Shown in pieces: positions 5,747 through 55,430 of a DNA stretch of 64,000 nt. The stretch is from a bacterium (GTDB lineage Bacteria; Patescibacteriota; Minisyncoccia; UBA6257; MFKM01), in NCBI GenBank assembly GCA_030693325.1, contig JAUYAV010000019.1, forward strand, positions 1,324-65,323, read 5' to 3'. Under the pieces are notes generated by a model, which was given only the letters and a program-made list of their open reading frames with translations, made no database searches and was not told the DNA's origin. The position numbers were made by a program, and so were the translations under genes. The stretch's first letter is position 1, and each line of letters starts with the position of its first letter.

Positions 5747-8212
5747 ATGAAGCCAAAAAAGAAAAAAATTATAAAAATATTCGGTTTGACAACGCTGGTT
5801 GTTTTAGTTTTAGCGGCAACCGGTTTAATATACCTGTCTTCGCTGATAAAAAATTTACCAGTTTTAGACCAAATCAGCGACTACCAACTGGCCCAGTCAA
5901 CTCAAATTTACGACCGGACAGGCAAAGTCCTGCTCTACGAAATCCACGGTCAGGAGAAAAGGACGGTCATTCCTTTTGAAGAAATCCCTGATTATGTCAA
6001 AAAAGCGACTATCGCTATTGAAGACCACGGTTTTTACAACCATCCTGCTTTTGACCTTAAAGCCATTGTCCGGGCCCTTTTTAATAATTTAATTCATGGC
6101 CAATCCAAGGGCGCATCCACTATTACCCAGCAATTAGCCAAAAATGCTTTCCTTTCGCCGGAAAAAACAATTCAAAGAAAAATAAAAGAACTCGCCTTGG
6201 CCATTGAGTTGGAGCGTTATTACGCCAAAGACGAAATTTTAACTTTTTATCTTAACCAAATCCCTTACGGCTCAAATATTTACGGCATTGAAGCCGCCGC
6301 CCAGGCCTATTTCGGCAAACCAGCCAAAGAACTTGACTTAGCCGAAGCCGCCGTTTTGGCCGCCGCGATCCAGGCGCCCAGTTATTATTCTCCCTGGGGT
6401 TCTCGTTTGGACGAACTTAAAAAACGCCAAGAACTTGTTTTGGACGAAATGTTAAAACAGGGTTTTATTGATGCCGGGCAAAAAGAACAAGCCATAAAAA
6501 CCAAACTGGTTTTCGCCTCTCCGTCTCTTAGCGGCATTAAAGCCCCGCATTTTGTTATGGAAGTGAAAGAATATCTGGTCAACCGCTACGGAGAAGAAAT
6601 GGTCCAAAAAGGCGGTTTAAAAGTTATCACGACACTTAATTACGAACTGCAGAAATCAGCGGAAACAGCGGTGACTGAAGGCGCCCAACGCAATGATACT
6701 CTCTATAAGGGAAAGAACGCCGCCTTGGTGGCTCAAGACGCTAAAACAGGCCAAATTTTAGCGCTGGTTGGCTCTCGCAACTATTATGATATTGAGAACG
6801 AGGGCAACTTTAATGTCGCTACCCAGGGCCTGCGCCAGCCCGGTTCCGCGCTCAAGCCCTTCGTTTATCTGACCGCTTTTGAAAGGGGGTATACTCCGGA
6901 CACGATATTATTTGATGTGCCTACTGAATTTACCGCCAACAATCCACTCTGTCCCGCGATAGTTGATTTCAACAATGAGAATCCGGTTTGTTTTCATCCT
7001 CGTAATTTCGATAAACAATTCCGTGGTCCGGTTGATTTAAAAAATGCCCTAGCTCAATCAATCAACATACCTGCGGTCAAGATGCTTTACCTGTCCGGTT
7101 TGGATAATGTTGTAAAAACTCTTCACAATTTCGGCATCACCACCTTGACCGATCCCCGGCGTTACGGCTTATCGCTGGTTTTAGGCGGCGGCGAAGTCAA
7201 GCTTATAGATTTAGTTGAGGCCTATTCCGTTTTAAGCCAGGAAGGGATCAAACATCCCCAGACCATAATTTTGGAAGTTAAAGACAGTAATGGAAAAATT
7301 CTGGAAGAATATCAAGACCGAAGTACAAAAATCGTTGATCCGCTTTATCCGCAATTAATAAACAATATTCTTTCCGACAAGGATTTGCGCCAGCCGCTTT
7401 TTTCTTCCAGTTTGAATCTCACGGTTTTCCCAGACCAGGAAGTCGCCTTGAAAACGGGAACCAGCAACAACTTCCACGATGCCTGGGCTTTGGGCTACAC
7501 CCCCTCTTTTGTGGTCGGGGTTTGGGCCGGAAATAATAATAATGCCCCGATGCAACAGCAAGCCGGCAGTATTCTGGCTGCCGTTCCTATCTGGCACGCT
7601 TTTATGGAAGAGATTTTAAAAAATGCGACCACTACCGAAACCTTCACCCGGCCGTATTCGATTTCAGCCGAAAAACCCATTCTCCGCGGCGAAGCCGTTA
7701 TTAACTATCAAGTCAATGGCGTGGAATATCCTCAAATTCATGACATTCTTTATTATATAGACAAAAACAACCCCCAAGGGCCAATCCCTCAAAACCCCCA
7801 AGACGATCCGCAATTTCAAAACTGGGAAGAAGAATTAATGGAATGGTTGAAACAGAATCTTCCGGATTTCAGCCGTTATAATCAAACGCCGCCGGGGTTA
7901 ACCCAGAATTCCAATACCGGACAAAATTCCAAACTGGAAATTGCCGCCTTTTCGCCTAATAATGGGGATTTCGTGAAAGACGCGATAAATATTAAGGCCA
8001 CAATAAAATCAGATGTTAATCTGGATAAAATTGAACTCTATTTTAATAATCAATTAATTGACCGCAAAAGTCCGGGGTCTCTTGGAGTATATGAATACCA
8101 ATACCAAATTGCCAATCAAAAATTTGATCTCCAAAATTCTCTTAAAATAAAAGTCAGTGATGTTTACGGAAATTCCGCCGAAAAAGAAGTAATAGTTTTT
8201 CAATTACTGTAA
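5747..8212 (+). CDS. Class A penicillin-binding protein (glycosyltransferase + transpeptidase) with C-terminal Ig-like extension
   Basis: Start moved to the in-frame ATG at 5747 (MKPKKKKIIKIFGLTTLVVL... TM anchor); the upstream part of the track ORF overlaps divergent tyrS. GT51 motifs (EDHGFYNH, QQLAKN); transpeptidase motif SALKP (Ser-x-x-Lys). Confidence 0.85.
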   Translation: MKPKKKKIIKIFGLTTLVVLVLAATGLIYLSSLIKNLPVLDQISDYQLAQSTQIYDRTGKVLLYEIHGQEKRTVIPFEEIPDYVKKATIAIEDHGFYNHPAFDLKAIVRALFNNLIHGQSKGASTITQQLAKNAFLSPEKTIQRKIKELALAIELERYYAKDEILTFYLNQIPYGSNIYGIEAAAQAYFGKPAKELDLAEAAVLAAAIQAPSYYSPWGSRLDELKKRQELVLDEMLKQGFIDAGQKEQAIKTKLVFASPSLSGIKAPHFVMEVKEYLVNRYGEEMVQKGGLKVITTLNYELQKSAETAVTEGAQRNDTLYKGKNAALVAQDAKTGQILALVGSRNYYDIENEGNFNVATQGLRQPGSALKPFVYLTAFERGYTPDTILFDVPTEFTANNPLCPAIVDFNNENPVCFHPRNFDKQFRGPVDLKNALAQSINIPAVKMLYLSGLDNVVKTLHNFGITTLTDPRRYGLSLVLGGGEVKLIDLVEAYSVLSQEGIKHPQTIILEVKDSNGKILEEYQDRSTKIVDPLYPQLINNILSDKDLRQPLFSSSLNLTVFPDQEVALKTGTSNNFHDAWALGYTPSFVVGVWAGNNNNAPMQQQAGSILAAVPIWHAFMEEILKNATTTETFTRPYSISAEKPILRGEAVINYQVNGVEYPQIHDILYYIDKNNPQGPIPQNPQDDPQFQNWEEELMEWLKQNLPDFSRYNQTPPGLTQNSNTGQNSKLEIAAFSPNNGDFVKDAINIKATIKSDVNLDKIELYFNNQLIDRKSPGSLGVYEYQYQIANQKFDLQNSLKIKVSDVYGNSAEKEVIVFQLL

Positions 8213-8240
8213 TTACGGTAATTACGGTAATTACGGTAAT
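8202..8240. repeat. GTAATTAC palindromic 9-mer array (PBP/dnaN spacer; includes PBP stop codon)
   Basis: caattactgtaattacggtaattacggtaattacggtaatt. Confidence 0.8.
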
Positions 8241-47317: not shown

Positions 47318-48319
47318 TTATACTTTAGCCGGTGTTTGGGCCGCGGTGAGGGTCTGTTTTTTTATTTCTTCCAAAAGTTTTTTGTCTTCTTTTAATTTTA
47401 ATTTGGCGGCTTCAAGACCGACACCTAATTTTTCTTTATTGAAACTGTAAGTGTTGCCGGATTTGATGACACTGCCGTATTTAATAGCGGTATTCAAAAC
47501 ATCGGCTTCCGGGACGATTCCTTCGCCGAAAATAATTTCAAACTCGGCGATTTTAAAAGGCGCTGCCACTTTATTTTTGACTACCTTAGCATGCACCAGC
47601 TGGCCGATTATTTCTTCGCCTTTTTTCAGTTTGGCTTTGGCCCGGATATCAATTCTAATTGAAGAGAAAAATTTCAAAGCGCGGCCGCCGGGAGTCGTTT
47701 CGGGATTGCCGAACATAATTCCGATTTTCATCCGGATTTGGTTGATAAAAATAATGACGGTTTTTGATTTGGAAGTAATGGCAGTTAATTTTCGCAGGGC
47801 CTGGCCCATCATCCGGGCTTGCAAGCCCATAAATTGATCGCCCATTTCGCCTTCAATTTCCGCGCGGGGAGTAAGAGCCGCCACCGAGTCCACTACGATT
47901 AAGTCAATTATTCCTGACCTTACCAGACTTTCAACGATATTCAGGGCCTCTTCGCCGCTGTCCGGCTGAGAAAGTAAGAGGTCGTCGGTTTTTACCCCAA
48001 GTTTTCTTGCGTAATCAATATCAAAAGCGTGTTCGGCGTCAATATAAGCGGCTTTGCCGCCTTTTTTTTGAAGCTCGGCAATGGCATGAAGAGTTAAAGT
48101 GCTTTTGCCCGACATTTCCGGGCCGTAAATTTCCACCATCCGGCCGCAGGGCAGACCGCCTACTCCCAAAGCCAAATCCAGAGAAAAAGAGCCGGAAGGG
48201 ATGACCTCGGTTTTGCCGATTTTTTTATCTCCGAGCCGCATTATAGATCCTTCGCCGAATTTAGTTTTTAAACTTTCAATTAAATCGGAAAAATCTTTGT
48301 CTTTATTGGTTTTGTCCAT
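47318..48319 (-). CDS. recA: Recombinase RecA
   Basis: Walker [11 protein letters not shown]; L1/L2 loop regions; 333 aa. Confidence 0.95.
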
Positions 48320-49047: not shown

Positions 49048-51156
49048 TTATAACGGGTTGCTGTCGTCGCTGTCCACTTTATCAAAATAAACCTCTCTCG
49101 GTTTTGCGCCTTCGCCCGGACCGATCAACCCTCTATTCTCCATAATATCCAAGAGCCGGGCCGCCCGGGCATAACCGACTTTCAAGCGGCGCTGGAGTAG
49201 TGAAGCCGACGCTTTTTGAGCCGCTTTGACCACTTCCAGGGCTTCGTCAAAAAGTTCATCATCGTCGTCTTCATCGGACCTATTAAAAATAGAAAAAGGC
49301 GATTCGTTATTATTCTGGTCATTGTCCGGTAATTCCAATTCTTTTTCCGAATCGCTTGCCTCCGGTTTATTATTGGTTTTGATAAAGTTGATGACTTTTT
49401 TTATTTCTTCTTCAGTGACATAACAGCTTTGGATTCTTTTCGGCTTGGAAAATTCCGAGGATACAAAAAGCAAATCGCCTCGGCCCAGAAGTTTTTCCGC
49501 GCCGGCGGTATCAAGAATCGTTCGTGAATCTATCTGGCTTGCCACCTGTAAGGCGATACGGCAGGTGATGTTGGCTTTGATGAGGCCGGTGACCACTTCA
49601 ACCGACGGCCTTTGAGTGGAAACAACCAGGTGTAAACCCGTGGCGCGGGCCATTTGCGCCAGGCGGATGATTAACCCTTCCACTTCCCGGCCATAGGTCG
49701 CCATCAAATCTGCCAGTTCATCTATTACGATTAAAATATAAGGCAGCGGTTCTTCGGCTTTGGCCCCGCTGAGCGAGGCTTTGGCATTATATCCTTGAAT
49801 GTCGCGGTTGCCGGCTTCCAAAAGAATTTTATAGCGCCGATCCATCTCCTCTATGGCCCAGCGGAAAACATTGATGGCTAATTTGCTTTCGGTGATGACC
49901 GGAGCGATAAGGTGGGGAATGCCGTCATAATTTGAAAGTTCCACTCTTTTTGGGTCAATTAAAATAAGTTTAAGGGTGGAAGGAGAATTTTTATAAAGCA
50001 GGGAAATTAGAAGCGAATGAATGATTACCGATTTGCCGCTACCGGTCGCGCCGGCGATAAGCAAATGAGGCATTTTATCAATATTGGAGAAAATCGGTTT
50101 GCCGTCAATATCTCTTCCCAAAACAAAACCTAAAGGCCCGGAATTTTGGAATTCCGGCGAAGCTATTAAACTGCCCAATCTCACTAAGGCCGCGGCTTTG
50201 TTCGGGACTTCAACGCCGACCAATGATTTGCCCGGTATCGGGGCTTCAATTCTTATGGGGTGGCTGGCCAAGGCTAAAGACAGGTCCTGGTTTAAGCCGG
50301 TGATTCTTGAAAGTTTGACGCCTTCAGCCGGTTTTAAGGTATAACGGGTTACCGCCGGCCCGACGGTGATTTCACCCATTTCCACCGGAATACCGAATCC
50401 CTCTAAAGTTCTTTTAATGATATTGGCGTTGGCCCGCAGGTCGCCGATGCTGGGTTTTTCGCTGAAAGATTTTAACAAATCCAACGGCGGCGCCACATAA
50501 TTTTTAAAAACCAAAGGTTTTTTAGGGATGATAATTTCCTCAGCTTCTTCTTTCTCTTCTTTTCTTTCTTTCTTTTCTTGTCTAGATAAAGGAATTTCCG
50601 AAGTTTTTGCTATAGCGACATGGGTTTCCTCAGCCGGTTCTTTCATATCCGGTTCCTCGGGTTCTTCTTCTATGTCTTTTTCCTTAACTCGCCGCGGAAT
50701 TCTTAAAGGAACGTTAAAAGTGATGATTATTGAAGCAATTAATAAAGTTGCAGTGATAACCAAACTGGCGGTTTTTCCGAAAGGAATTTCCAAGGCGCCG
50801 ACAAATTTTCCTATAAAACCTCCGCCGTCGCTCGCCAATAAATCAATTATGCCCAAACCGGAAAGCACAAACAAAACAGCGCCCACTAAAGTGTTACCGA
50901 CTATTTTTTTTTGCCTTGCAGTGAGAATGGCCAAAGCGGTCAATAATAAAATCATGGGCAGAAGATAATATCCCCAGCCCAGAAGATAATCCAAGGCGCG
51001 GTAAAGAAAATTGCCGGCCGGGCCGGCTTGTCTGAAACTGGCCAAAAGCAGAATTGCCGCCAGGCCGATGAAGATTATCGCGAAAACGCTTTTTTTGGCT
51101 TCGGGATGAAGCGAAGAATTCATTTCTTTCATCTTTGCTCTTTTTTCTTTTGCCAT
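49048..51156 (-). CDS. ftsK: DNA translocase FtsK/SpoIIIE
   Basis: N-terminal TM segments; Walker A GATGSGKSV; Walker B LIVIDELAD; C-terminal winged-helix gamma domain. Confidence 0.92.
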   Translation of the reverse strand: MAKEKRAKMKEMNSSLHPEAKKSVFAIIFIGLAAILLLASFRQAGPAGNFLYRALDYLLGWGYYLLPMILLLTALAILTARQKKIVGNTLVGAVLFVLSGLGIIDLLASDGGGFIGKFVGALEIPFGKTASLVITATLLIASIIITFNVPLRIPRRVKEKDIEEEPEEPDMKEPAEETHVAIAKTSEIPLSRQEKKERKEEKEEAEEIIIPKKPLVFKNYVAPPLDLLKSFSEKPSIGDLRANANIIKRTLEGFGIPVEMGEITVGPAVTRYTLKPAEGVKLSRITGLNQDLSLALASHPIRIEAPIPGKSLVGVEVPNKAAALVRLGSLIASPEFQNSGPLGFVLGRDIDGKPIFSNIDKMPHLLIAGATGSGKSVIIHSLLISLLYKNSPSTLKLILIDPKRVELSNYDGIPHLIAPVITESKLAINVFRWAIEEMDRRYKILLEAGNRDIQGYNAKASLSGAKAEEPLPYILIVIDELADLMATYGREVEGLIIRLAQMARATGLHLVVSTQRPSVEVVTGLIKANITCRIALQVASQIDSRTILDTAGAEKLLGRGDLLFVSSEFSKPKRIQSCYVTEEEIKKVINFIKTNNKPEASDSEKELELPDNDQNNNESPFSIFNRSDEDDDDELFDEALEVVKAAQKASASLLQRRLKVGYARAARLLDIMENRGLIGPGEGAKPREVYFDKVDSDDSNPL

Positions 51157-51253
51157 TAATTTAATTCTAATTTAGAATTAACAAGATGACAACAGATAAT
51201 AATAGCGACTAGTAACAAGTAATCAGTAACTAGGGAATAGGGACTAATAACAA

Positions 51254-51682
51254 ATGATTAAAATTAATCCTAACATCTTCAAGGCCAATGATATCAGGGG
51301 AAAATATCCGTCCGAGATTAATGAAAGAGTAATTTCGGAAATCGTTGGTAAATTGGCTGATTTTTTTCCGGAAGGAAAAATCGTAGTCGCCCATGATGCC
51401 CGTTTGAGTTCCCCTGTTTTATACAAAGCGGTTATAACGGGATTCAAAAATAAAAATTTATCCCTACGGGATATCTCCCGAAGGGAGACAAAACTCAAAA
51501 CTATTGAAGTGGGTTTGGCCACCACGCCGATGTTTTATTTTTTGGTGAAAAAATTAAAAGCCGGCGGCGGAATAATGATTACCGCTTCCCATAACCCGAA
51601 AAATTATAACGGCTTGAAAATTGTCGATAAAAACGCTTTGCCGATCAGCGGCTTGGAAGTAAAAAAATTATTTAAATTCTAA
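51254..51682 (+). pseudogene. Phosphoglucomutase/phosphomannomutase domain-I fragment (truncated), with in-frame repeat insertion
   Basis: Active-site loop GGIMITASHNP is present, but the ORF stops after ~140 aa; full enzymes are ~450 aa. The internal segment LSLRDISRRETK is encoded by the double-hairpin repeat at 51463..51495. Confidence 0.65.
51463..51495. repeat. In-frame copy of the double-hairpin element inside the PMM fragment
   Basis: atccctacgggatatctcccgaagggagacaaaa; the reverse complement of the ksgA copy reads ...tgtccctgcgggacatctcccgaagggagacaaa. Confidence 0.75.
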
Positions 51683-51701
51683 GATTCCCGAGATTGATTT
51701 T

Positions 51702-52625
51702 TTATAGATATTTTTGAGATAAAGCTTTTATCAAATCTTTTTCTTCCTCAATTTTTTTAAATCTTTTATAATTCCACTTGAATATCCTATCGTCGAAATA
51801 AATATTTTCCGCGCAGGCCAACATAGCCATTTGGGGTAAAATTTCTATGTCTTTTTTTGACAATTTAATTTTTTGAGAATAGTTTTTCAAAAAAAGCTCA
51901 AATTCGCTTTTTAAAAAAAAAGGTTTTGATATTTTTTCCATTTTCATTCCAAGTTTAGGAAAATCAAAAGGAATAATATTGAACATAAAAGCAATCATTA
52001 TCCCAAGATCATAAACAATCGGGCCCCACGATATATCATCAAGGTCAATTAAAAAAAGTTTTTTTCTGCCTAAAACATTGAAATAACTAATATCGCCATG
52101 GACTAAGCCGGTTGTTGCGCCAAATATGGGCGGAAATGAATCACAAAAAGAGATTATTTCTTTTCTGATTTTGATTTCTATCTTCTTTTTCGAAAAGGTT
52201 GCTCTCAGTCTTTTAATTTTTCCTTTAACATCTACTTCAGGAATTTTACTGTTTCCAATTTTAATTTTGTGTAATTCGCCGACAATGCGACCAAGCTCCG
52301 AAAAAAAATATCGCGATGGACGATTTTCTTTTTGATTAATAAATTTTGACAAAAATAAGATATCACCTGATTGCAAAAAATATTTTTTGTTTGATTTCGT
52401 GCTAATAATAGCAGGAAGATTAACGCCTTGTTTCTTAATTTTAGATACAAATTCCAATCTCTCAATCAATTCTTTGTTATTTGGAACAGCTTTAATAACA
52501 TATTTATTTTTGTCGTTTCCGATTAAAAAAGCGCTCCGTTTTCCTCGTGTCTCAAGTTTTTTCAAAAAAACAGGATTTTTGAGATTATATTCTTTTTTAA
52601 TTTTTTCAATTATCAGAGAAATCAT
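51702..52625 (-). CDS. APH/choline-kinase-family phosphotransferase
   Basis: Brenner motif LVHGDISYFN and DFG-like LIDLDD; 307 aa; very AT-rich. Confidence 0.7.
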   Translation of the reverse strand: MISLIIEKIKKEYNLKNPVFLKKLETRGKRSAFLIGNDKNKYVIKAVPNNKELIERLEFVSKIKKQGVNLPAIISTKSNKKYFLQSGDILFLSKFINQKENRPSRYFFSELGRIVGELHKIKIGNSKIPEVDVKGKIKRLRATFSKKKIEIKIRKEIISFCDSFPPIFGATTGLVHGDISYFNVLGRKKLFLIDLDDISWGPIVYDLGIMIAFMFNIIPFDFPKLGMKMEKISKPFFLKSEFELFLKNYSQKIKLSKKDIEILPQMAMLACAENIYFDDRIFKWNYKRFKKIEEEKDLIKALSQKYL

Positions 52626-52658
52626 TATTTTTAAATAATAACATTCTGCTTACTAAAT

Positions 52659-52696
52659 AAAAAATCGGGAAAGTGAATGAGCCACTTTCCCGATTT
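52659..52696 (-). terminator. Rho-independent terminator after rSAM-peptide pair
   Basis: Minus strand: aaatcgggaaagtggctcattcactttcccgatt + tttttt. Confidence 0.7.
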
Positions 52697-52712
52697 GCTG
52701 TTAGCGTAATTA

Positions 52713-52808
52713 CTACTTTGAGATATTACGCGAACGACATCCTCCATGGGAAGATGCCTTAGTCGATGACCAAACCGTTTTTACCGATTTTTTCACTGAC
52801 TTTTTCAT
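52713..52808 (-). CDS. 31-aa peptide co-transcribed with radical SAM/SPASM enzyme (candidate RiPP precursor)
   Basis: Perfect SD GAAAGGAGGcaaaaaATG. MKKSVKKSVKTVWSSTKASSHGGCRSRNISK. Start is 13 nt after the rSAM stop. Not in the ORF track because it is short. Confidence 0.5.
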   Translation of the reverse strand: MKKSVKKSVKTVWSSTKASSHGGCRSRNISK

Positions 52809-52821
52809 TTTTTGCCTCCTT

Positions 52822-54009
52822 TCATTTTTTGCAAAAATGCATTATCGCATTCAGCATATACTTTGGTTGTATTAACATATTCCCCGTATCGGTATAATTG
52901 ATACCCGGACAAAAATTAAAAACTTTTTTTGCCGGAATATCTTTCCATTTTAACGACCCGATTTTTAGCATGCTTTTCCCGTAAACAATTTCTTTGATTT
53001 TATTTTTCAAAAAAATATTCCCAACTGGCAAAGGCAACTGACCACACGGAAAAACATCGCCATTTCCCGATATTGCAAATATGGCTTTTCCAGCTTCACA
53101 AACATGCTCATTGCGATTAGAATTTTGTGTCTCCGAAATAAAACCCGGATTCTTCATTACAAAATCTCTTAGGTTCTCACTGGAAATATTTAATTGGCTC
53201 TTTTTTGCCTGACCATAATATTCATTGGTTATCGGCCAAGAAAAATTTTGAGCAATTTTATTTTCCTCAAAGAAAAGTTTAGTACTTTCCCACGAGTCAA
53301 AATTTCTTTTCATTAGAGGTGTTGCCACTTCAACAAAATATCCCATTTTTACCAGTGAATGAAGATTCCCGAGAGTACGCTTTAGCGACCCCGAACTTTT
53401 TGTTATATCATCATGAATTTTTGGAACAGAAGAATAAACTGATGTCTGTATTCTGCCTATTCTAAAATTTCCGCATTCATTAGATAGAAACCATCCAGGC
53501 AAGTATTGCAAATTACTAAATATTTCTACCAAAAACCCTTTTTCTGTCGCTATTTGCAATAGACTCCGAAGACTTTTGCTAATAAACGGCTCGCCGCCAC
53601 TTATAACAATAAGAAAAACTCCCAAAGCTTTAAGTTCGTCAAAAAAATCGCCGATACCAGATTCGTTCATCCGCTCAAGAAAGCCCAGTTCAGAAGAACA
53701 CAAATTTTTATTCCCAACGTAGCAATGGATACATCTTAATGAGCATCTTCGGCTTAATTCAATGTTTACCGTTGTCGGGAAATCAAACGCAAGACCAAGC
53801 TTAATCAAATTTTTTCGGCACAACCTAGAATTATATTGGCCGCTTATATTTTTGAAAAAGTTTTTGGTGTCGCTGTCAAATTCATAATCATCCGGCTTAT
53901 TTGCAATCCTTTTCGCTTTGATATCGTCTGCTTTAATTGAAACAATCTGTCCGTTTTTGCAATTCAAAAAATGAGTATGACTTCCTATATTCCGCCATAT
54001 AATAGACAT
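52822..54009 (-). CDS. Radical SAM enzyme with C-terminal SPASM/twitch-like Cys cluster and ~85-aa N-terminal extension (possible RRE)
   Basis: CSLRCIHCY = Cx3Cx2C at residues ~89-96; GGEP motif (ISGGEPF); C-terminal Cys cluster CEAGKAIFAISGNGDVFPCGQL ... FNFCPG. Confidence 0.75.
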   Translation of the reverse strand: MSIIWRNIGSHTHFLNCKNGQIVSIKADDIKAKRIANKPDDYEFDSDTKNFFKNISGQYNSRLCRKNLIKLGLAFDFPTTVNIELSRRCSLRCIHCYVGNKNLCSSELGFLERMNESGIGDFFDELKALGVFLIVISGGEPFISKSLRSLLQIATEKGFLVEIFSNLQYLPGWFLSNECGNFRIGRIQTSVYSSVPKIHDDITKSSGSLKRTLGNLHSLVKMGYFVEVATPLMKRNFDSWESTKLFFEENKIAQNFSWPITNEYYGQAKKSQLNISSENLRDFVMKNPGFISETQNSNRNEHVCEAGKAIFAISGNGDVFPCGQLPLPVGNIFLKNKIKEIVYGKSMLKIGSLKWKDIPAKKVFNFCPGINYTDTGNMLIQPKYMLNAIMHFCKK

Positions 54010-54161
54010 AACAATCTCCTTTTTAATTTTTAATGTTCAATCAAATACTTATATACCTATTTTTTAGTATCTAACAAATTAATTGTTTTGTCAAATTTTG
54101 TGGCTAAAACACCCAAAATATAGCCAAAACAAGAAAATTTGAGTATAATAACAGTATTCTT

Positions 54162-55430
54162 ATGCGCTATATTGCCGATTTTCACATTCATTCTCCTTAC
54201 TCGCGGGCGGTTTCCAAGGAAATGACTTTGGAAAATTTGGATATCTGGGCGCAGAAAAAAGGCATCACTATTTTAGGCACGGGCGACTTTACTCATCCCG
54301 CCTGGTTTAAAGAAATTCAAAAAAAACTTGAGGAACGCGAGCCGGGACTTTTTGCTTTAAAATCCAACAAATCGGCGGACGCCACTCGATTTATTTTAAC
54401 TTCCGAGATTTCCAGTATTTATACCAAATATAATAAAGGACGGCGCGTTCATAATCTGATTTTTGCGCCGAATTTGGAAGCGGTTAAAAAAATAAATACT
54501 CAGCTCGGCTTTATAGGCAATATTAAATCTGACGGCCGGCCGATTTTGGGCCTTGACCCCAAAGAACTTTTGAAAATTATTTTAGAGGTTGACCCGAAAT
54601 GTTTTTTAATACCTTGCCATGCCTGGACGCCCTGGTTCTCCATTTTTGGTTCAATGTCCGGTTTTAATTCGGTTGAAGAATGTTTTGAGGAAATGTCCGG
54701 TGAAATTTTCGCCTTAGAGACTGGCCTTTCCAGCGACCCGGCCATGAACTGGCGTTTGTCTCAATTGGATAAATACACTTTGATTTCCAATTCAGACGCT
54801 CACAGCTTGCCTAATCTCGGCCGCGAGGCCTGCGTTTTTGAAATCAAGCCGGAAAAACTTTCTTTTGACGAAATTAAAAGAATTCTCAAAGAGAAAGACA
54901 AAGAAAAATTTTTATACACCATTGAATTTTTTCCCGAAGAAGGAAAATATCATTACGACGGCCATCGGCTTTGCCAGGTGAGATTGTCTCCTAAAGAAAC
55001 CAAAAAATGCCACGGCCTCTGCCCTGTTTGCGGCAAACGATTAACTATCGGCGTAATGTCGCGGGTGGAGGAATTGGCGGATCGCGAAGAAAATTTTAAG
55101 CCCAAAAACCCGATTCCTTTCAAAAGTTTGGTGCCTTTGCGGGAAATTATTGCCGAATCTTTGGGTCGTGGCAAAGCGACAAAATTAGTGGTGGAAGAAT
55201 ATGAAAATTTGGTTTTCAAAGGCGGCAATGAATTTAAAATCCTTTTGGATTTAGCCGAAGCCGAGCTGTCAAAAATAACTTTGCCGAAAATCGTTGAAGG
55301 AATTATGAAAGTCAGAAAAAAAGAATTATTTGTTTTGCCCGGCTATGACGGCGAATACGGCACTGTCAAAATTTTTTCCGAGGGAGAAAAAAATAAACCG
55401 CCTTTGGCTCAAAAAAATTTGTTTGGCTAA
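54162..55430 (+). CDS. PHP-domain nuclease of the TIGR00375 / endonuclease Q-like family
   Basis: N-terminal PHP signature ADFHIHSPYSRAVS; internal zinc-finger CHGLCPVCGKRL; 422 aa. Confidence 0.55.
   Translation: MRYIADFHIHSPYSRAVSKEMTLENLDIWAQKKGITILGTGDFTHPAWFKEIQKKLEEREPGLFALKSNKSADATRFILTSEISSIYTKYNKGRRVHNLIFAPNLEAVKKINTQLGFIGNIKSDGRPILGLDPKELLKIILEVDPKCFLIPCHAWTPWFSIFGSMSGFNSVEECFEEMSGEIFALETGLSSDPAMNWRLSQLDKYTLISNSDAHSLPNLGREACVFEIKPEKLSFDEIKRILKEKDKEKFLYTIEFFPEEGKYHYDGHRLCQVRLSPKETKKCHGLCPVCGKRLTIGVMSRVEELADREENFKPKNPIPFKSLVPLREIIAESLGRGKATKLVVEEYENLVFKGGNEFKILLDLAEAELSKITLPKIVEGIMKVRKKELFVLPGYDGEYGTVKIFSEGEKNKPPLAQKNLFG

Follow-up and report, generated by a model that had tools for sequence, protein, structure and literature searches.

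A candidate RiPP-type radical SAM peptide-maturation cassette conserved across bacteria of the Candidate Phyla Radiation

We analyzed a stretch of 64,000 nucleotides (the window) from contig JAUYAV010000019.1 of a patescibacterial genome assembly (GCA_030693325.1), in which a gene for a radical S-adenosylmethionine (rSAM) enzyme is followed on the same strand by an open reading frame (ORF) of 31 codons and by the gene for a kinase of the aminoglycoside phosphotransferase (APH) fold. Our comparison shows the small ORF to be a genuine, conserved gene. The locus is most likely a cassette for the maturation of a peptide that is made by the ribosome and modified after translation (RiPP), conserved across the Candidate Phyla Radiation (CPR), in which an enzyme made up of a RiPP recognition element (RRE), an rSAM core and a Twitch domain is paired with a precursor of 22-35 amino acids and, in this lineage, with a dedicated APH-fold kinase. 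We hold the parts of this reading with different degrees of confidence. That the rSAM enzyme modifies the 22-35-aa peptide is highly probable; our analysis also favors the package as a whole, thioether chemistry included, although by a smaller measure; and the odds that the kinase acts on the peptide itself are, in our judgment, slightly below even.

The features of the locus are as follows.

52822..54009, minus strand: radical SAM maturase (predicted), 395 aa, with the RRE at aa 1-75, the rSAM core at aa ~80-290 and the Twitch domain at aa ~295-395
53785..54009, minus strand: predicted RRE at the N-terminus, with three strands and then three helices (AlphaFold2 model with DSSP, and Foldseek)
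53722..53745, minus strand: CX3CX2C motif (C89, C93, C96) for the SAM-cleaving [4Fe-4S] cluster, invariant in 30/30 aligned homologs
52825..53127, minus strand: predicted Twitch-type auxiliary-cluster domain, with invariant C304, C322 and C367 and the CX12GX4C hairpin motif
52815..52820, minus strand: Shine-Dalgarno sequence AGGAGG of the peptide gene, 1 nt past the rSAM stop codon (direct reading)
52713..52808, minus strand: predicted precursor peptide ORF MKKSVKKSVKTVWSSTKASSHGGCRSRNISK, 31 aa, divergent within the C-x-x-C-[AP]-S-R-S-S-x-[HKY] family
52652..52696, minus strand: intrinsic terminator with a 14/15-bp, G+C-containing stem, a 5-7 nt loop and a T-run
51702..52625, minus strand: APH-fold kinase ORF, 307 aa (PF01636 at 42.4 bits; cut-off 23.2)
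54066..54094, minus strand: candidate sigma-70-like promoter upstream of the rSAM gene, TTGACA-17-GATACT, a consensus match only (10/12, AT-rich spacer)
51254..51682, plus strand: ORF of 142 aa with domain I only of a phosphohexomutase (PF02878, 1.8e-30), a neighbor outside the cassette

Both the ORF listing and direct reading place the rSAM, peptide and kinase ORFs on the minus strand, convergent with the phosphomannomutase (PMM)-like ORF, and they reproduce the ORF coordinates given in a preliminary description of this DNA that had been made from its letters alone. The hairpin and T-run directly past the peptide stop (52662..52696) likewise agree with the terminator placed there in that description. 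The identical block was recovered in an independent Logan assembly, and an Rfam scan of positions 51000-54400 returned no credible regulatory RNA.

The short peptide gene

The 31-aa ORF begins 13 nt past the TGA of the rSAM gene, behind AGGAGG, and is thus coupled to the enzyme gene exactly as the preliminary description had it. The loci that we compared, 12 from species-representative genomes and 41 from metagenomes, carry the labels Paceibacterota, Jorgensenbacteria, Wolfebacteria, Parcubacteria, 'Saccharibacteria' and Dojkabacteria. An ORF encoding 22-35 amino acids lies downstream of the enzyme in 50 of the 50 loci with downstream sequence, at rSAM identities of 38-87%; the search for peptide homologs and their co-occurrence with the rSAM gene, suggested earlier as a check, therefore found the peptide in every homologous locus where it could be seen. 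The small ORF is preceded by AAAGGAGG in nearly all of the related loci and is commonly followed by a hairpin. In many homologs the C-terminus of the enzyme reads ...KKGG(K), because the ribosome-binding site of the peptide gene is translated in frame.

Alignment of 38 distinct peptides, anchored on the last Cys as position 0, reveals a sharply defined C-terminus. Cys(0), Arg(+3) and a stop codon directly after position +7 are present in all 38; Cys(-3) and Ser/Thr(+2) are found in 37, Ser(+5) in 35 and Ser(+4) in 34, and position +7 is occupied by His (28 peptides), Lys (8) or Tyr (2). The resulting consensus for the core is C-x-x-C-[AP]-S-R-S-S-x-[HKY], and MKKSAKKPIKTVWSSARKSKASSCVGCPSRSSQK is an example of a canonical member of the family. 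The N-terminal half is rich in Lys and Arg and contains a recurrent [IV]-W/R-[KS]-S element. In its position adjacent to the enzyme, with one or two potential Cys donors followed by seven residues and with Cys(0) invariant, the peptide has the layout of a sactipeptide-type precursor. When eight variants were searched against Pfam and NCBIfam at E-values up to 10, only sub-threshold, zinc-ribbon-like noise was returned.

Could the 31-aa ORF have arisen by chance next to an enzyme whose substrate is not a peptide? Short ORFs are frequent in AT-rich DNA, and gene callers skipped this one; indeed, the small gene is missing from every public record that we examined. The amino-acid conservation of the ORF, however, runs deep enough to span the whole range of enzyme identities, which argues that it is not a chance reading frame, and its occurrence in 50/50 loci, its conserved Shine-Dalgarno sequence, its fixed stop and the predicted RRE of the enzyme all speak against this explanation, which we regard as scarcely credible.

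The peptide encoded in the window, MKKSVKKSVKTVWSSTKASSHGGCRSRNISK, is the most divergent of the 38 variants. It alone has His in place of Cys(-3), so that the motif reads HGGC, and it also carries Arg(+1), Asn(+4) and Ile(+5) and, compared with its closest relatives, lacks three residues through a deletion. Of the family features it keeps Cys(0), Ser(+2), Arg(+3) and the set length and has lost Cys(-3), Ser(+4) and Ser(+5); the retention of Cys(0) together with the loss of Cys(-3) fits the second Cys as the essential donor. The preliminary description had pointed out the Gly-Gly of this peptide. We considered it as a leader-cleavage motif and rejected it: GG occurs in 0/37 of the other variants, and in this one the two Gly residues are the x-x of a degenerated CxxC.

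The closest relative of the locus, L002, has an enzyme that is 87% identical and the same flanking genes, and it contains two peptide genes (region L002:7150-9332). The first follows the enzyme (7202-7306) and ends in ...CVGCPNRNTSK; the second, just before the kinase (8111-8215), has the canonical ending ...CVNCPSRSSSK. Between the two lie a 160-aa minus-strand ORF (7416-7898), putatively a GNAT-like acetyltransferase, and a fragment of ~75 nt that duplicates the 3' region of the kinase gene (about 7960-8035). To judge from these sequences, the arrangement looks like the product of a past tandem duplication of a peptide-kinase unit. The window has a single peptide copy, and the sequence 3' of it is like that found after the second copy in L002.

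These observations bear on the idea that the cassette is decaying in this one genome, the peptide having moved off the substrate motif so that no mature product is made, with the family otherwise functional. In favor of decay are the unique loss of Cys(-3), the substitutions at +1, +4 and +5 and the deletion. The nonsynonymous divergence (dN) of the peptide from its relatives is 0.19-0.21, about three times the 0.06-0.08 of the enzyme, a comparison that over 31 codons is indicative only. L002 also has its second, canonical peptide copy, and no such copy is found within the 64 kb of the window, although the contig, 203,842 bp long, extends for another ~140 kb beyond the sequence searched. Against decay, the enzyme is normal at every strongly conserved column, both enzyme and kinase have been under purifying selection in the lineage of the window, and the ORF, its Shine-Dalgarno sequence, Cys(0), Arg(+3), the exact length and the terminator are all intact. 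Moreover, the rSAM-adjacent peptide of L002 is likewise divergent (CPNRNTSK), which suggests a tolerated class of variants. We think decay unlikely; judging from the sequence, the peptide of the window appears to be a variant, or possibly a weakening substrate, of a fully intact enzyme.

The radical SAM enzyme and its proposed chemistry

The enzyme scores 32.2 bits against the Radical_SAM model PF04055 (cut-off 29.5) and has CSLRCIHCY at residues 89-97, in agreement with the CX3CX2C core reported in the preliminary description. Exactly six Cys residues are invariant across the 30 aligned members. Three of them, C89, C93 and C96, form the CX3CX2C motif and, together with a domain score above the Pfam gathering threshold, place the protein in the radical SAM superfamily. 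The other three, C304, C322 and C367, lie in the C-terminal region: C304-x12-G317-x4-C322 is the beta-hairpin motif that opens SPASM and Twitch domains, and C367 is the single Cys of an N-F-C-x-G motif. The Pfam SPASM model gives a borderline match (22.2 bits vs 21.5) that covers profile positions 1-52 of 67, and the Twitch domain of BtrN is matched at profile positions 302-372. A full SPASM domain, with its seven-Cys pattern CX9-15GX4C - CX2CX5CX3C - C, was considered and rejected, as CX2CX5CX3C is absent. Because C304, C322 and C367 are the only conserved C-terminal Cys residues, we predict that this domain is a Twitch-type half-SPASM with a single auxiliary cluster. The C-terminal Cys cluster had earlier been called SPASM or twitch-like; the second half of that phrase survives and the first does not. 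C322 aligns with Cys351 of SkfB, an Aux I ligand, given a +2 offset between index and residue number that was inferred from chain length.

The N-terminal extension had been suggested to be a peptide-recognition element, and structure prediction bears this out. In the AlphaFold2 (AF2) model, which has a pLDDT of 91 and a pTM of 0.91, DSSP assigns strands E3-8, E11-16 and E22-25 and helices H29-37, H46-53 and H62-75 (pLDDT >90). This beta3-alpha3 arrangement is the predicted winged helix-turn-helix of a PqqD-like RRE, the topology described for SkfB (PMC6231123). A Foldseek search of the PDB places SuiB, SkfB and CteB on top, with SuiB first, in full-length alignments that include the RRE (E 1e-13 to 1e-15); BlsE, MoaA, viperin and the anaerobic sulfatase-maturing enzyme (anSME) rank below these RRE-bearing RiPP maturases. 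Among PDB sequences, the best profile match is SkfB, at 1.6e-15 over residues 81-356; the next stands at 4.8e-8.

The family to which the enzyme belongs is small. We collected 77 full-length relatives at identities of at least 38%, and those that are named all come from metagenome-assembled genomes (MAGs) of CPR/Patescibacteria. An exhaustive hidden Markov model (HMM) search of 1.84 billion cluster representatives yielded 15 family representatives at 280-620 bits, then a gap, and then proteins at 230 bits or less, of which those just under the gap are themselves unassigned rSAM/SPASM proteins. This clean gap indicates that the family is sharply bounded as well as small and uncurated. Every curated model in an NCBIfam scan stayed under 20% of its cut-off, the best being GeoRSP at 71 bits vs 400. 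The SkfB equivalog TIGR04403 gives 33 bits against a cut-off of 300, and the anSME/AhbD/NirJ/PqqE/MftC/MoaA-type models give at best 27-60 bits against cut-offs of 265-650. The enzyme thus groups neither with anSME nor with the cofactor enzymes, and the small ORF is conserved beside its homologs; the preliminary description had made the reality of the peptide depend on these two points. The window enzyme itself shows no deviation at any strongly conserved column, and its ratio of nonsynonymous to synonymous substitution rates (dN/dS) is 0.15-0.23.

These data suggest the following mechanism, the first two steps of which draw on the structural model and the sequence. In the first, the N-terminal, Lys-rich half of the precursor, which bears the [IV]-W/R-[KS]-S motif, would dock as a strand on the RRE. 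In the second, the C89/C93/C96 cluster would make the 5'-deoxyadenosyl radical, and a single auxiliary Fe-S cluster would be held by C304, C322 and C367 only; with just three protein Cys ligands, one iron of this cluster would be left free. In the third step, the thiolate of the core Cys(0) would ligate the free auxiliary iron, and the radical would take a hydrogen from a carbon among the seven C-terminal residues (A/P-S-R-S-S-x-H/K), so that a thioether ring would form between the Cys sulfur and that carbon. SkfB has the same plan of RRE, rSAM and Twitch domains, with three visible Cys ligands on its auxiliary cluster, and both MoaA and CteB bind their substrates at an open auxiliary-cluster iron, the ligand in CteB being a substrate Cys (PMC6231123). 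Sporulation killing factor (SKF), with Cys1 and Cys4, contains a Cys4-Met12 thioether (PMC8172795). We infer that the product would be of the sactipeptide or ranthipeptide type.

We also considered dehydration of the lanthionine type, as carried out by a class V lanthipeptide or thioamitide module. This was rejected, since the block contains no additional ORF and a HopA1/OspF-like lyase gene is not conserved across 50 neighborhoods.

The same architecture might support a different chemistry. The enzyme could install a C-C cross-link (SuiB/WgkB-like), epimerize a residue, or turn the peptide's C-terminus into a redox cofactor or metal unit (PqqE/PqqA- or MftC/MftA-like), and the CxxC...H residues would then be metal ligands or recognition elements and not thioether donors. 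SuiB does head the structure search, and models of WgkB, MftC and PqqE give partial matches of 32-58 bits. That the peptide always ends seven residues past Cys(0) is reminiscent of mycofactocin-type systems, mycofactocin being a C-terminus-dependent system. The lack of a conserved protease or exporter and the housekeeping-like spread of the cassette in tiny genomes would be in keeping with a cofactor or with a function inside the cell, and kinase or nucleotidyltransferase steps, of the kind that the accessory enzymes described below might perform, are common in cofactor assembly. The pattern of conservation argues the other way. The Cys residues are the sole ones that are invariant along with Arg(+3), and the leader Trp is Arg, Lys or another residue in many members, so that a link of the Lys-Trp type cannot be general to the family. 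By sequence, SkfB clearly comes first among the matches, the cofactor-enzyme models fall far under their cut-offs, and a three-Cys site with an open iron is the arrangement tied to substrate-Cys binding in sactisynthases. For these reasons we consider another chemistry to be a less likely outcome by some distance, and thioether formation at Cys(0) remains the chemistry that we favor.

Accessory enzymes and the surroundings of the cassette

The kinase conserves the beta3 Lys (invariant K41/K45), an H176-x-D178-x4-N183 catalytic loop and a D194-x-D196 metal site, which together with the PF01636 match (9.4e-11) confirm its earlier placement in the APH family. Its dN/dS of 0.16-0.29 indicates purifying selection. 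Among 5.8 billion proteins, a shared-word search, by which remote relatives may be missed, found 27 relatives, none less than 60% identical and a good many on contigs that match rSAM-bearing contigs in size. In the compared loci the kinase is found downstream on the same strand in 16, comprising the whole clade with enzyme identities of at least 65% and a distant pair, L006 and L035, with an enzyme that is 45% and a kinase that is 31% identical. From its sequence relatives, the kinase appears to be cassette-specific as well as under purifying selection.

Just upstream of the kinase gene (window 52626-52661), the start codon lacks a Shine-Dalgarno sequence and is preceded by the motif AATGTTATTATT(T/A)AAAAATAATG, which recurs in L002 and L003 and, as a variant, in L004. 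This motif could be a -10 element near the ATG, in which case the kinase transcript would be leaderless or have a short leader.

In 17 loci that lack the kinase, a protein of 150-170 aa adjoins the cassette, its gene lying upstream in the same orientation or else downstream in convergent orientation (L007, L008, L023-L034, L037-L039 and L052; for example, L008:5469-5924 and L027:6334-6840). This 155-aa-type protein and the kinase never occur together in the fetched loci. The protein has no Pfam match, and a PDB profile search returned only TM1012 at E=0.14. Its AF2 model (pLDDT 94) matches 5UVD, TM1012, ANT(2'')-Ia, LnuA and MenT in Foldseek, with a TM score of ~0.65 and E-values of 1e-4 to 1e-2, and the sequence has invariant G26-S27 and D42 and a nearly invariant D44 (G-S...D-x-D). 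The G-[GS]-x9-13-D-x-[DE] signature and the Pol-beta-like fold are those of a minimal nucleotidyltransferase; the protein is absent from the window. A shared-word search found 36 relatives, many on contigs of the same size as cassette contigs and two with PF14907/PF09970. The model suggests that the protein is an ANT/Lnu-like nucleotidyltransferase that would replace the kinase in other lineages. In a neighbor-joining tree of the enzymes, calculated without support values, the distant kinase-bearing pair stands beside one of the nucleotidyltransferase clades, which implies at least one swap of the accessory gene. About eight loci with enough flank carry none of the kinase, the nucleotidyltransferase and the methyltransferase described below.

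In a fourth step of the proposed mechanism, the kinase would O-phosphorylate a Ser or Thr of the Ser-rich tail, and the ANT/Lnu-like nucleotidyltransferase would take its place in other lineages. There is precedent for such tailoring: Ser and Thr residues of a RiPP precursor are phosphorylated by CaoK, an APH-like kinase (PMC9486802), and PadeK and PsmK place a phosphate on the C-terminal Ser of lasso peptides, a residue that PsmN, which has been modeled on the ANT(2'') structures 5CFS and 4XJE, decorates further (PMC6993621).

Alternatively, both accessory enzymes might serve in self-protection, inactivating the mature product or a competitor's antibiotic, or might be linked small-molecule enzymes. 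Their nearest solved relatives modify antibiotics, namely an amicoumacin kinase for the kinase and ANT(2'')-Ia and LnuA for the 155-aa protein; the kinase has a separate transcription unit past the terminator; and the core Ser residues are conserved regardless of either enzyme. A third group of loci with an UPF0020/AviRa-like RNA methyltransferase would, we suggest, complete the classical trio of resistance mechanisms. Set against this is the tiny size of both accessory families, with 27 and 36 proteins, many of them on contigs that match cassette contigs in size, which argues for a cassette-specific substrate, although the shared-word searches could miss distant, free-standing relatives of both. 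Enzymes of the APH-like and ANT-like kinds are also proven tailoring enzymes of RiPPs that act on Ser. We see such a role as a minority prospect, about as plausible as the other chemistries considered above, and prefer modification of the peptide as the role of these enzymes.

The methyltransferase occurs in seven loci of two clades (L010-L013 and L046-L048), where a UPF0020/RlmKL-like RNA methyltransferase gene with a weak AviRa match lies directly upstream of the rSAM gene (for example, L010:5201-6046 and L048:4235-4996). One clade has the two genes in divergent orientation, the other has them co-directional. Its adjacency may reflect functional linkage or inherited synteny. Other genes recur near the cassette in fewer loci. 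In L008/L039 and L031/L032, the nucleotidyltransferase or rSAM gene is directly preceded by ORFs of 600-640 aa that resemble ABC transporters and are possible exporters. L005, L026 and L030 have a second rSAM paralog of the same cluster within a few kb, and a different rSAM protein of 480-556 aa (PF04055 + Fer4_12) is encoded near the cassette in L019 (2972-4642), L020, L021 and L027. These extra rSAM genes could belong to further peptide-modifying systems.

Several findings weigh against a thioether-forming cassette with a peptide kinase. Identity to SkfB is only ~16%, and the score of 33 bits is far from the 300 required by the SkfB model. In structure SuiB matches just as well, and its product is a C-C cross-link. 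Lineages that have neither the kinase nor the nucleotidyltransferase conserve the Ser-rich tail to the same degree, so that Ser conservation is independent of these enzymes. The kinase sits behind a terminator in a transcription unit of its own, and the solved structure closest to it belongs to a kinase that acts on a small molecule (amicoumacin), matched at only E=0.004. The adjacency of kinase, nucleotidyltransferase and methyltransferase is largely clade-bound, so the counts are phylogenetically correlated and do not represent independent events. Unlike classical sactipeptide clusters, the 50 neighborhoods share no conserved protease or exporter gene. Finally, the peptide of the window itself departs from the family at four otherwise conserved positions.

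A broader version of our reading is that of an ancient, CPR-wide peptide whose last eleven residues are cross-linked and then O-phosphorylated or O-nucleotidylylated by interchangeable enzymes. This would constitute a chemically new class of RiPP, a proposal that we put forward as speculative and more apt to be wrong than right. Such a peptide may serve as an intracellular cofactor, a metal-binding unit, or a host-interaction or signaling factor of an episymbiont and not as a conventional bacteriocin, because the cassette comes without an exporter and protease and yet is kept in genomes of ~1 Mb.

How the cassette came to lie where it does was also of interest, because the preliminary description had read the block as an AT-rich islet inserted into a PMM gene and truncating it. 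The composition is AT-rich in one part only. The kinase gene, at 28.7% GC (z=-3.0) and with a z of -3.1 for third-position GC (GC3), has the lowest GC and GC3 among the 50 genes of the window, so for this gene the description holds; the rSAM gene, at 35.2% (z=-1.3), lies inside the spread of the window, which as a whole has 40.5% GC. Separately, a GC peak of 0.48-0.51 at window positions 47600-48200, compared with ~0.40 elsewhere, falls inside the ORF 47318-48319 on the minus strand.

As had been noted, the PMM-like ORF has domain I only and ends at 51682. TASHNP is present, and the protein is not a four-domain alpha-D-phosphohexomutase: signatures of domains II-IV (DxDxDR, GExSG, SxTEP) are found in none of the six frames of the 64-kb window. 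A recent acquisition that cut the PMM gene would agree with this lone domain, with the low GC of the kinase gene and with the different contexts of the cassette in different genera (in Jorgensenbacteria it lies between an acyltransferase and an aminotransferase gene). Other evidence disfavors it. The contig of L002, the species with the 87% identical rSAM enzyme, ends within an ORF that matches residues 116-142 of the PMM remnant and has the same stop beside the same kinase, indicating that the truncation is older than the split of the two species. The gene past the far side of the block is of the TIGR00375/MJ0043_C type, not PMM. A search for flanking direct or inverted repeats returned only low-complexity, AT-rich chance matches, and there is no tRNA gene or integrase gene flanking the block. 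In addition, the GC content of the rSAM gene is ordinary for the window, and the rSAM tree broadly follows the CPR lineages. Recent insertion is thus very improbable, and the data fit a cassette that has been moved or rearranged over long times.

That far-side gene, which runs divergently from the rSAM gene, is a 422-aa ORF (window 54162-55430) that reaches 190 bits with TIGR00375 (cut-off 326.6) and carries a Pfam annotation of MJ0043_C. An ORF of the same type holds the same position in L002.

Relationship to known systems

The cassette is found in Paceibacteria (Wolfe- and Jorgensenbacteria), in MAGs labeled Saccharibacteria and in Dojkabacteria. The literature that we searched on radical SAM or RiPP systems in CPR/Patescibacteria yielded only generic surveys of biosynthetic gene clusters, none of which describes this enzyme or peptide. 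The cassette has been retained in CPR bacteria even though their genomes are minimal and are believed to hold few dispensable pathways. Should the peptide prove to be produced, it would count as the first defined radical SAM natural product or modified peptide family specific to the CPR, a large uncultured radiation. With 22-35 aa, the substrate is unusually compact and synthetically accessible, and the combination of a three-Cys Twitch maturase with a tiny substrate should be useful for probing the role of the auxiliary cluster. The occurrence of the same core with a kinase, with a nucleotidyltransferase or with neither amounts to a built-in natural experiment. The case also illustrates how annotation that is blind to small ORFs overlooks the key gene of a system.

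Among RiPP tailoring enzymes, CaoK and LxmK of class V lanthipeptides resemble the present system in having an APH-fold kinase beside a Ser-rich precursor, and PsmK and PsmN of lasso peptides in that the 155-aa protein matches the same ANT(2'') structures, 5CFS and 4XJE, with which PsmN was compared. In both cases the C-terminal Ser region is the target, as we propose here. The CaoK/LxmK systems differ in having a HopA1-like lyase/cyclase, whereas none accompanies the kinase here, and PsmK and PsmN are partners, whereas kinase and nucleotidyltransferase are alternatives in this family. Both differ in that the primary modifying enzyme here is a radical SAM protein.

SCIFF-type ranthipeptides are made by a minimal pair of an rSAM enzyme and a short Cys-rich peptide, with six Cys in ~45 aa, and are widespread in Clostridia. 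The cassette is similar in being a minimal two-gene unit without a dedicated protease or exporter and in its breadth within one bacterial group. In contrast to the six Cys and the SPASM domain of the SCIFF systems, it has two Cys followed by a Ser/Arg tail, and a Twitch domain. CteB (5WGG/5WHY), which forms a thioether, and SuiB (5V1Q), which forms a Lys-Trp cross-link, align with the enzyme in structure over the full length, including the RRE, and binding of the substrate Cys to the open Aux I iron of CteB is the mechanism that we propose here. Both have a complete SPASM domain with two auxiliary clusters, whereas this enzyme has only its first half, and identities are 14-17%.

By sequence, the closest working analog is the sactisynthase/precursor pair SkfB/SkfA of Bacillus subtilis (PDB 6EFN). 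SkfB shares the RRE, the rSAM core and a one-auxiliary-cluster Twitch domain with three Cys ligands, and the Cys1-x-x-Cys4 core of SKF, in which Cys4 is the donor, parallels the C-x-x-C of the family with its invariant second Cys. The two systems differ in several respects. The third-ligand site of SkfB is C-x-C, compared with the single Cys of N-F-C-x-G. SkfA, a 55-mer, contains a 26-aa core that becomes cyclized head to tail, and the peptides described here, of 22-35 aa, carry their core at the very C-terminal end. The SKF system includes protease, exporter and thioredoxin genes of the SkfC/E/F/H type, none of which was found in the neighborhoods of the cassette. The host of SkfB is a Bacillus, and those of the family are CPR bacteria. 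The cassette falls outside the SkfB equivalog and every curated family, and its sequences set it apart by a very short substrate, a fixed C-terminal register, an enzyme-then-peptide gene order without processing or export genes, apparently interchangeable hydroxyl-modifying enzymes and a distribution confined to the CPR.

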